Source of the DNA: Escherichia coli
Lineage (GTDB): Bacteria > Pseudomonadota > Gammaproteobacteria > Enterobacterales > Enterobacteriaceae
Length of the DNA stretch: 407 bases
NCBI RefSeq assembly: GCF_003334255.1
Contig: NZ_QOWU01000246.1
Strand: one strand, 5' to 3'
Program-made: the position numbers and the translations under genes
The notes under the pieces: model-generated
What the model was told of the DNA's origin: nothing
The model's input: the letters and a program-made list of their open reading frames with translations, nothing else
The model's database searches: none
Shown: one piece after another, positions 1-407 of the stretch
How positions within the stretch are numbered: position 1 is the first letter of the stretch
Layout: each line of letters begins with the position of its first letter

Positions 1-72
1 TTGTAAATCCCCGTGAAGGCAGATGCGTGCCAGTGGCGGTGACGCCAGACAGAATGCGTTCGTCGTTGCCAT
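1..72 (-). CDS. I: Phage tail assembly protein I homolog (lambda gpI family), N-terminal 24 codons only; continues beyond window position 1
   Basis: An ATG at + 72..70 (minus strand) opens a frame reading MATTNAFCLASPPLARICLHGDLQ up to the window edge. This resembles the N-terminus of lambda gpI as I recall it (roughly MAATHTLPLASPGMARICLYGDLQ...). It is in a different frame from K and overlaps K's 3' end, as in phage lambda. A purine-rich Shine-Dalgarno-like tract lies upstream. Confidence 0.75.
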   Translation of the reverse strand, partial: MATTNAFCLASPPLARICLHGDLQ

Positions 73-407
73 TTTTCGGAATACCTCTCCCGTTTACTCA
101 GTTGTTCAGGCAGATGGTGAAGCAGCTCACCGTTGCCGCAGTAAATGGCGGCATGGTTGGCCACCGATGCGCCAAAGCAGCACAGCAGAATATCGCCCGC
201 CTGTGCAGAGGACAGGGGCACCCGGTAAAAGCCCGTGGCCTCCATATTGTCCAGGTACAGGTTCTGGCCGTTGCGCCACCACTCATCCTCGCGGTGAAAA
301 TCCGGCATCTCAGTCCCCGCCAGATGGTAGGCATCCCGGAACAGCGTGTAACAGTCCGTCACCCCGTGCTCAAAGCGCCGTCCTGTCAGATGTGGCACAC
401 AGCGGAA
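1..407 (-). CDS. K: Phage tail(-tip) assembly protein K homolog (lambda gpK family), C-terminal NlpC/P60 (C40 peptidase-like) domain; internal fragment, truncated at both window edges
   Basis: Reverse-complement frame beginning at + position 407 is open for all 135 codons: FRCVPHLTGRRFEHGVTDCYTLFRDAYHLAGTEMPDFHREDEWWRNGQNLYLDNMEATGFYRVPLSSAQAGDILLCCFGASVANHAAIYCGNGELLHHLPEQLSKRERYSEKWQRRTHSVWRHRHWHASAFTGIY. It contains an NlpC/P60-like arrangement: Cys in TDCYTLF (+351..353), His in ANHAAIYCG (+153..155), and a second His 12 residues later in ELLHHLP (+117..119). The sequence closely resembles the C-terminal part of lambda gpK as I recall it. Neither start nor stop lies in the window, which is why the ORF track did not report it. 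Confidence 0.85.
84..91 (-). promoter_or_regulatory. Shine-Dalgarno-like ribosome-binding site (GGGAGAGG on the minus strand) for the I start codon
   Basis: The minus strand reads ...aaacGGGAGAGGtattccgaaaaATGgca..., placing the purine tract 11 nt upstream of the I ATG. The spacing is on the long side for a canonical SD, and the tract lies inside the K coding sequence, so it is constrained by K codons as well. Confidence 0.45.

Follow-up and report, generated by a model that had tools for sequence, protein, structure and literature searches.

Iyer, Burroughs and Aravind (2006; PMC1779556) described the lambda tail tip assembly protein K as a JAB domain followed by an NlpC/P60 domain, an architecture which dates to 2003-2006 and for which they cite Anantharaman and Aravind 2003. 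A 2003 paper (PMC300881) pointed out a JAMM motif in lambda K, a peptidase domain of gpK was reported in 2020 from HHpred (PMC7291167), and RefSeq now labels both lambda K and its E. coli prophage copies, across thousands of prophages, as 'C40 family peptidase'. In Spr (MepS) of E. coli, the triad is Cys-His-His (Aramini et al. 2008, as cited in PMC3423380) and Cys68 is essential for catalysis (PMC7774453). The peptidase g14 of RcGTA also has a Cys-His-His triad and cleared peptidoglycan in a zymogram (PMC3423380); the lumen of the RcGTA tail contains density consistent with one g14 monomer, and deletion of g14 gave heads without tails (both PMC7296036), which indicates an assembly role for this distant relative of K. 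The peptidase of roseophage R4C has been counted as a virion component (PMC10276861). For lambda, the enzyme which opens the peptidoglycan has not yet been identified (PMC11101478), and gpK was neither detected in virions by mass spectrometry (PMC10721106) nor resolved in Ur-lambda by cryo-EM (PMC12617516). The preliminary description of the DNA studied here, made from its letters alone, considered the protein family not to be novel, with which the literature of 2003-2006 and the RefSeq annotation agree; given the published architecture and the RefSeq label, the finding of an intact triad at this locus is a correct re-derivation of existing annotation.

The window (the whole stretch of DNA that was analysed, 407 nucleotides) was found on translation to be open on its minus strand from base 407 for 135 codons, with no stop across its length. 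The encoded fragment was 87.4% identical in amino acids to phage lambda K over 135 residues (tblastn, E 6e-80) and matched PHROG 30, 'minor tail protein' (E 1.5e-87). At the DNA level, 96-98% identity was seen to the K genes of Stx-converting phages and E. coli prophages. When 5,426 complete E. coli genomes were searched, the closest match was a prophage K gene (98.0%) annotated 'C40 family peptidase' and the exact allele of the window was absent from all of them, while K homologs were present in 3,947 of the 5,426, with a median of two copies. K lies within the tail-tip module H (tape measure)-M-L-K-I-J in lambda and in the nearest relatives (96-98% DNA identity), the 407-base window itself being without flanking genes. 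The earlier identification of the gene as a K homolog is thereby upheld, both by the identity to lambda K and by the module in which its relatives lie. Comparison of the frame with lambda K gave a dS of 0.74, a dN of 0.066 and a dN/dS of 0.089, which marks it as a genuine coding sequence subject to strong purifying selection. Open reading frames of 78, 51, 27 and 20 amino acids in other frames were dismissed, as they are nested within the K frame which is under this selection, and an Rfam scan of both strands of the window matched no RNA family. The features of the window are as follows, with residues numbered along the translated fragment.

Positions 3 to 407, minus strand: interior part of a K gene (tail tip assembly protein, lambda type) coding for residues 103-237 of 247, with both gene ends outside the window.
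Positions 42 to 383, minus strand: papain-like peptidase domain of NlpC/P60 type (MEROPS C40), placed at fragment residues 9-122 by PF00877 and supported by AlphaFold2 and Foldseek.
Positions 351 to 353, minus strand: Cys19 (TGT), predicted nucleophile in the motif TDCYTLF, aligned to MepS Cys68 and starting helix 19-29.
Positions 234 to 320, minus strand: segment of residues 30-58 between the Cys helix and the His strand, carrying the family-conserved Arg39 and Trp44, with helices at 43-46 and 50-57.
Positions 153 to 155, minus strand: His85 (CAT), predicted general base in the motif ANHAAIYCG, aligned to MepS His119 and to the catalytic His of RipA.
Positions 117 to 119, minus strand: His97 (CAC), predicted third triad residue and first His of the motif ELLHHLP, aligned to MepS His131 and to a Glu of RipA.
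Positions 114 to 116, minus strand: His98 (CAT), a family-specific conserved neighbour outside the canonical triad, aligned to MepS Ala132.

The fragment matched the Pfam NLPC_P60 model (PF00877) with an E-value of 6.1e-14, across model positions 1-105 of 105, and in a full-length relative with 98% identity the same domain was matched at residues 111-224 (E 3.3e-13). A search against this Pfam family was among the checks proposed in the preliminary description, and it returned a significant match for fragment and full-length relative alike. That description had also put a Cys at 351-353 and His residues at 153-155 and 117-119, separated by 66 and 12 residues; a script placed the motifs and codons at exactly these positions and reproduced both spacings (Cys19-His85, 66 residues; His85-His97, 12 residues). 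In the numbering of the 247-residue protein the three are Cys121, His187 and His199. This arrangement of the predicted Cys/His/His site is far beyond chance. Past the domain, in the C-terminal tail, residues 118-127 (HSVWRHRHWH; window 27-56, minus strand) contain four His in ten residues, an unusual richness for this allele. Lambda differs at two positions of this His-rich tail (H125A and H127R), and in the family only Arg122 of the tail is at least 90% conserved, with His123 being the majority residue.

The conservation of these residues was followed in diverged members of the family. A word-indexed homolog search returned nearly exclusively close E. coli and Salmonella fragments, which are unsuited to judging conservation, and the family was instead sampled by exhaustive comparison with 1.84 billion cluster representatives, which gave 1,874 matches at E <= 0.001, the best 150 of which were taken forward. 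Counts were made over the 99 homologs among the best 150 of 1,874 that cover the domain with less than 60% identity to the fragment, and more distant members beyond these best 150 could behave differently. Within this set Cys19 was kept in 98/99, His85 in 99/99 and His97 in 98/99 homologs, the triad being nearly invariant among relatives which are otherwise diverged to about 40% identity, and the family profile showed the triad-flanking residues Asp18 and Asp72 to be nearly invariant as well. His98 was kept in 96 of the same 99 homologs (Gln in the three exceptions); Cys3, His28, His38, Cys76, Cys77 and Cys90 of the fragment were not conserved among them. Outside the general NlpC/P60 motifs, the K family keeps Arg10, Gly15, Asp25, Arg39, Trp44, Phe60, Ser104 and Arg122 at a level of 90% or more, and several of these lie in the added segment to which the 66-residue Cys-His spacing is due. 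Such K-family-specific residues may line a family-specific substrate groove. As a separate observation on relatives of the fragment, Aeromonas phage AP1 (MT713136.1, 254 kb) carries at 253759-253845, near the end of the record, an isolated and unannotated 29-residue piece with 86% identity to fragment residues 101-129, which resembles a stray piece of lambdoid DNA or contamination of the assembly.

When a family profile (A1) built from 81 of the diverged homologs was compared with solved structures, E. coli Spr/MepS ranked first (2K1G, E 1.1e-6), and 8XUD and 7V6S were also matched. The profile alignment put Asp18-Cys19 on Asp67-Cys68 of MepS (motif IDC(68)SGF), His85 on His119 and His97 on His131, and hmmalign gave the same pairing of His85 with His119 and of His97 with His131, together with His98 on Ala132 and Asp72 on Asp107. 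The equivalence of Cys19 with MepS Cys68 rests on the local profile alignments, hmmalign of a truncated Spr fragment having put the Cys segment in an insert state. When aligned with RipA, His85 fell on the catalytic His and His97 on the Glu that is the third residue of RipA, at the same spacing of 12 residues. From the profile alignments and the predicted secondary-structure placement, Cys19, His85 and His97 occupy the triad positions of MepS Cys68, His119 and His131. One gapped PDB alignment had suggested His98 as a triad residue; this was ruled out by the family profile and hmmalign, which both gave His97, and the alignment of His98 to Ala132 of MepS means that it is not a triad residue. The conservation of His98, coupled with the presence of Ala in MepS and Thr in R4C at its position, marks the His97-His98 doublet ('HH') as an apparent signature of the K family, and, given its place on a strand, His98 would be expected to turn its side chain away from His85.

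An AlphaFold2 model of the fragment, made with alignment A1, had a mean pLDDT of 95.4 and a pTM of 0.89. In this model helix 19-29 begins with Cys19, strand 85-91 begins with His85 and the next strand, 94-97, ends with His97, a predicted placement of Cys helix and His strand that is as expected for a papain-like peptidase. Foldseek against the PDB returned E. coli MepS chains as its best matches (8XUP, 8XUD, 7V6T and 2K1G; TM 0.60, rmsd 2.6-3.3 Å over 119 columns), followed by other peptidoglycan NlpC/P60 enzymes, all of the top matches being NlpC/P60 enzymes. In the comparison of a model with Spr/MepS, which the preliminary description had recommended, MepS was the best solved match at the level of the overall fold, and the 12-residue His-His spacing which it had given for Spr/MepS equals that of the aligned His119 and His131. 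It had named misaligned Cys and His residues, or the lack of a significant NlpC/P60 match, as results that would speak against it, and neither occurred. Among the structural neighbours there were also NlpC/P60-fold domains from the baseplates of diffocin (a contractile tailocin of C. difficile, 8v3w_H) and of the staphylococcal myophage phi812 (9eug_A/9euf_A), showing that tail tips far outside the siphophages use this fold too.

The other half of K lies outside the window and was followed in the full-length 98%-identical relative, where Prok-JAB was matched at residues 3-105 (E 9.7e-15) ahead of NLPC_P60 at 111-224. The JAB/MPN domain of this nearest relative, which lies beyond the window at L001 2695-3000, carries an intact JAMM motif, HSHPGGLPWLSEAD, and its best NCBIfam match was to desampylase (E 3.9e-7, below the cut-off); judged by their motifs, neither peptidase domain of K appears to have lost its catalytic residues. 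The fusion of JAB to NlpC/P60 was dominant in the family: in 82/99 diverged homologs (among the best 150 of 1,874 matches) the domain is preceded by 90 residues or more, and 69 of these 82 have a strict JAMM. The N-terminus of the full-length relative, MTQTESAILAHARR, has no apparent hydrophobic signal, and there is no room for a signal peptide in K because JAB begins at residue 3. The annotation of the K start differs between lambda records. In the RefSeq record NC_001416 (L004 477-1076) K is 199 amino acids long and begins at an internal Met (MSPEDW...), a start which lies inside the JAB domain and cuts away its first 48 residues, gene I then overlapping K by about 100 bases. In the newer lambda record PV340536 (L003 895-1638), as in prophage annotations, K has 247 amino acids, starts just after L and includes the whole JAB domain.

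The best NCBIfam match to the K peptidase domain was TIGR02219 (GTA-type phage cell wall peptidase), for which the fragment scored 25.6 bits against a cut-off of 81.9, the full-length relative 23.0 bits and NlpC/P60-only relatives of K no more than 21, with R4C gp015 scoring 90. Membership of K in TIGR02219 was rejected on these scores, the NlpC/P60-only relatives also falling below the cut-off, and K is to be seen as a distant relative of that family. Alignment of the K family with R4C gp015 by hhalign (82% probability, E 1e-5, 22% identity) put the Asp-Cys pair on Asp-Cys and both His on His, and gp015 has the same Cys-His spacing of 66 residues as the K domain. The alignment and the common spacing suggest that K and the R4C peptidase have a shared origin more specific than membership of one superfamily. 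The tail modules of RcGTA and R4C also have a single-domain NlpC/P60 peptidase at the position of K, between the hub gene and a J-like gene.

The NlpC/P60 domain of K is very probably a working cysteine peptidase, as judged from its sequence, an intact triad being necessary for activity though not sufficient for it. No report of enzymatic activity of gpK was found in the searched literature. In the proposed mechanism His85, oriented by His97, would deprotonate Cys19, and the Cys19 thiolate would attack an amide bond to give an acyl-enzyme that is then hydrolysed. By analogy with the GTA-type peptidases, the substrate could be the peptide stem of host peptidoglycan, an assignment which we make tentatively and rate at slightly under an even chance. 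Small quantities of K would then travel in the tail tip or close to it and be set free during infection, a scheme already put forward for RcGTA g14 and the R4C peptidase. What counts for this leaning are the zymogram and the tail lumen density of g14, the status of the R4C peptidase as a virion component, the synteny at the K position, the 66-residue spacing and the lambda peptidoglycan-opening enzyme that has yet to be named. Against it count the failure to detect gpK in virions, the lack of a signal peptide, the low TIGR02219 score and the invariant residues specific to K. The explanation as a whole, that the window holds the complete C-terminal NlpC/P60 domain of K and that this is a working peptidase with a leaning towards peptidoglycan, is one that we hold with good confidence.

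An active cysteine peptidase could instead be directed at a phage protein, which we regard as an appreciable possibility, if not the expected one. Here the domain would work in the cytoplasm with the JAB metalloprotease, processing the ubiquitin-like N-terminal domain of gpI, or for instance the tape measure gpH, during tail-tip assembly, and would then leave. That the K peptidase domains process the ubiquitin-like gpI was the proposal of Iyer, Burroughs and Aravind (PMC1779556), and the dominance of the JAB-NlpC/P60 fusion among diverged homologs and the best score of JAB against the desampylase model are in keeping with it, as is the absence of gpK from lambda virions by mass spectrometry (PMC10721106). 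In virions gpI is resolved only from residue 101 on (PMC11101478), although the missing N-terminus may be mere flexibility, and gpH is cut to gpH* once the tail has assembled (PMC12617516), with no protease named for this there or elsewhere in the literature found. However, processing of gpI is a contextual prediction and no cleavage of gpI was reported in the literature found. NlpC/P60-only versions of K also adjoin gpI, and JAB can travel with gpI instead (PMC1779556), which suggests that the NlpC/P60 domain is independent of the pairing of JAB with the ubiquitin-like domain. The syntenic peptidases of RcGTA and R4C, moreover, occur without a gpI-like gene, and g14 degrades peptidoglycan (PMC3423380).

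It is much less probable that the triad has been retained in a domain which acts as a non-catalytic scaffold or chaperone of assembly, with the triad residues serving in binding or folding. Non-catalytic NlpC/P60 domains do exist, RipD (4jxb) being one among the fold matches; K is known genetically as a tail assembly factor without a known location (PMC12617516), and the deletion of g14 in RcGTA blocks tail formation (PMC7296036). The known inactive members have, however, lost triad residues, whereas all three persist here in 98-99% of the homologs, whose identity is about 40% (among the best 150 of 1,874 matches), Asp18 and Asp72 are near-invariant and the dN/dS is 0.089. A near-invariant triad with near-invariant flanking Asp residues is the pattern predicted by selection on catalysis, which makes a purely non-catalytic role unlikely. 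The reading of the three residues as a chance pattern, with no genuine NlpC/P60 domain in the frame, is refuted by the results, for while single-sequence matches to solved structures were weak (E 0.004-0.4), PF00877 was matched over the whole model at E 6.1e-14, the profile found MepS at E 1e-6, the confident structural model had MepS as its top match, the residues are near-invariant, the other frames hold only short nested ORFs and no RNA family was matched.

Returning to the K domain as a working peptidase, we think it somewhat more likely than not that it is one of two enzymes that are missing from lambda biology, either a peptidoglycan opener delivered by the virion, or a papain-like protease acting on the ubiquitin-like domain of gpI or in the conversion of gpH to gpH*. 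As a peptidoglycan opener, K would be present at about one copy per tail and would have been overlooked by proteomics, as RcGTA g14 initially was. If K does process gpI or gpH, bacterial viruses would have their own equivalent of deubiquitinase-type processing. The discovery value of the present analysis is small and its use is practical: the conserved Cys-His-His site gives a point-mutant handle on the role of gpK, on the passage of lambda through peptidoglycan and on the cleavage of gpH. To the existing annotation it adds His98 as a family-specific conserved residue outside the triad, a long Cys-His spacer common to the K domain and the GTA/R4C tail peptidases, and the start of the classical 199-residue annotation of lambda K within the JAB domain.

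Of the known systems, lambda K (RefSeq NP_040598, 'C40 family peptidase') is the most directly comparable, with the same Cys/His/His/His residues as the fragment; 17 of the 135 amino acids differ between the two, all of them conservatively and none at the conserved positions of the family, and the two-domain JAB and NlpC/P60 architecture is common to lambda K and the nearest relative of the fragment. MepS/Spr (PDB 2K1G, 7V6S and 8XUD; peptidoglycan DD-endopeptidase / LD-carboxypeptidase) shares with the K domain the fold, the Cys-His-His residues, the Asp before the Cys and a Gly-Asp motif before the His strand, but identity between the two is only about 20%, and the Cys-His spacing is 66 residues in the K domain against 51 in MepS because of an extra helical segment in the former. 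MepS is also a periplasmic lipoprotein, whereas K is predicted to be a cytoplasmic phage protein, fused to JAB and lacking a signal peptide. Several of the invariant residues specific to K (Arg10, Asp25, Arg39, Trp44, His98, Ser104 and Arg122) have no counterpart in MepS-type enzymes, a possible sign of a different substrate. The GTA-type tail peptidases resemble the K domain in the length of their Cys-His spacer, as seen in R4C gp015, but the His-His spacing of gp015 is 11 residues where that of K is 12, and gp015 has Thr113 at the position of His98. The peptidases of RcGTA and R4C have no JAB domain, and no gpI-like (ubiquitin-like) gene lies between them and the J-like gene; it is to these GTA-type enzymes, not to gpK, that the structural hints of presence in the virion and the peptidoglycan zymogram belong.
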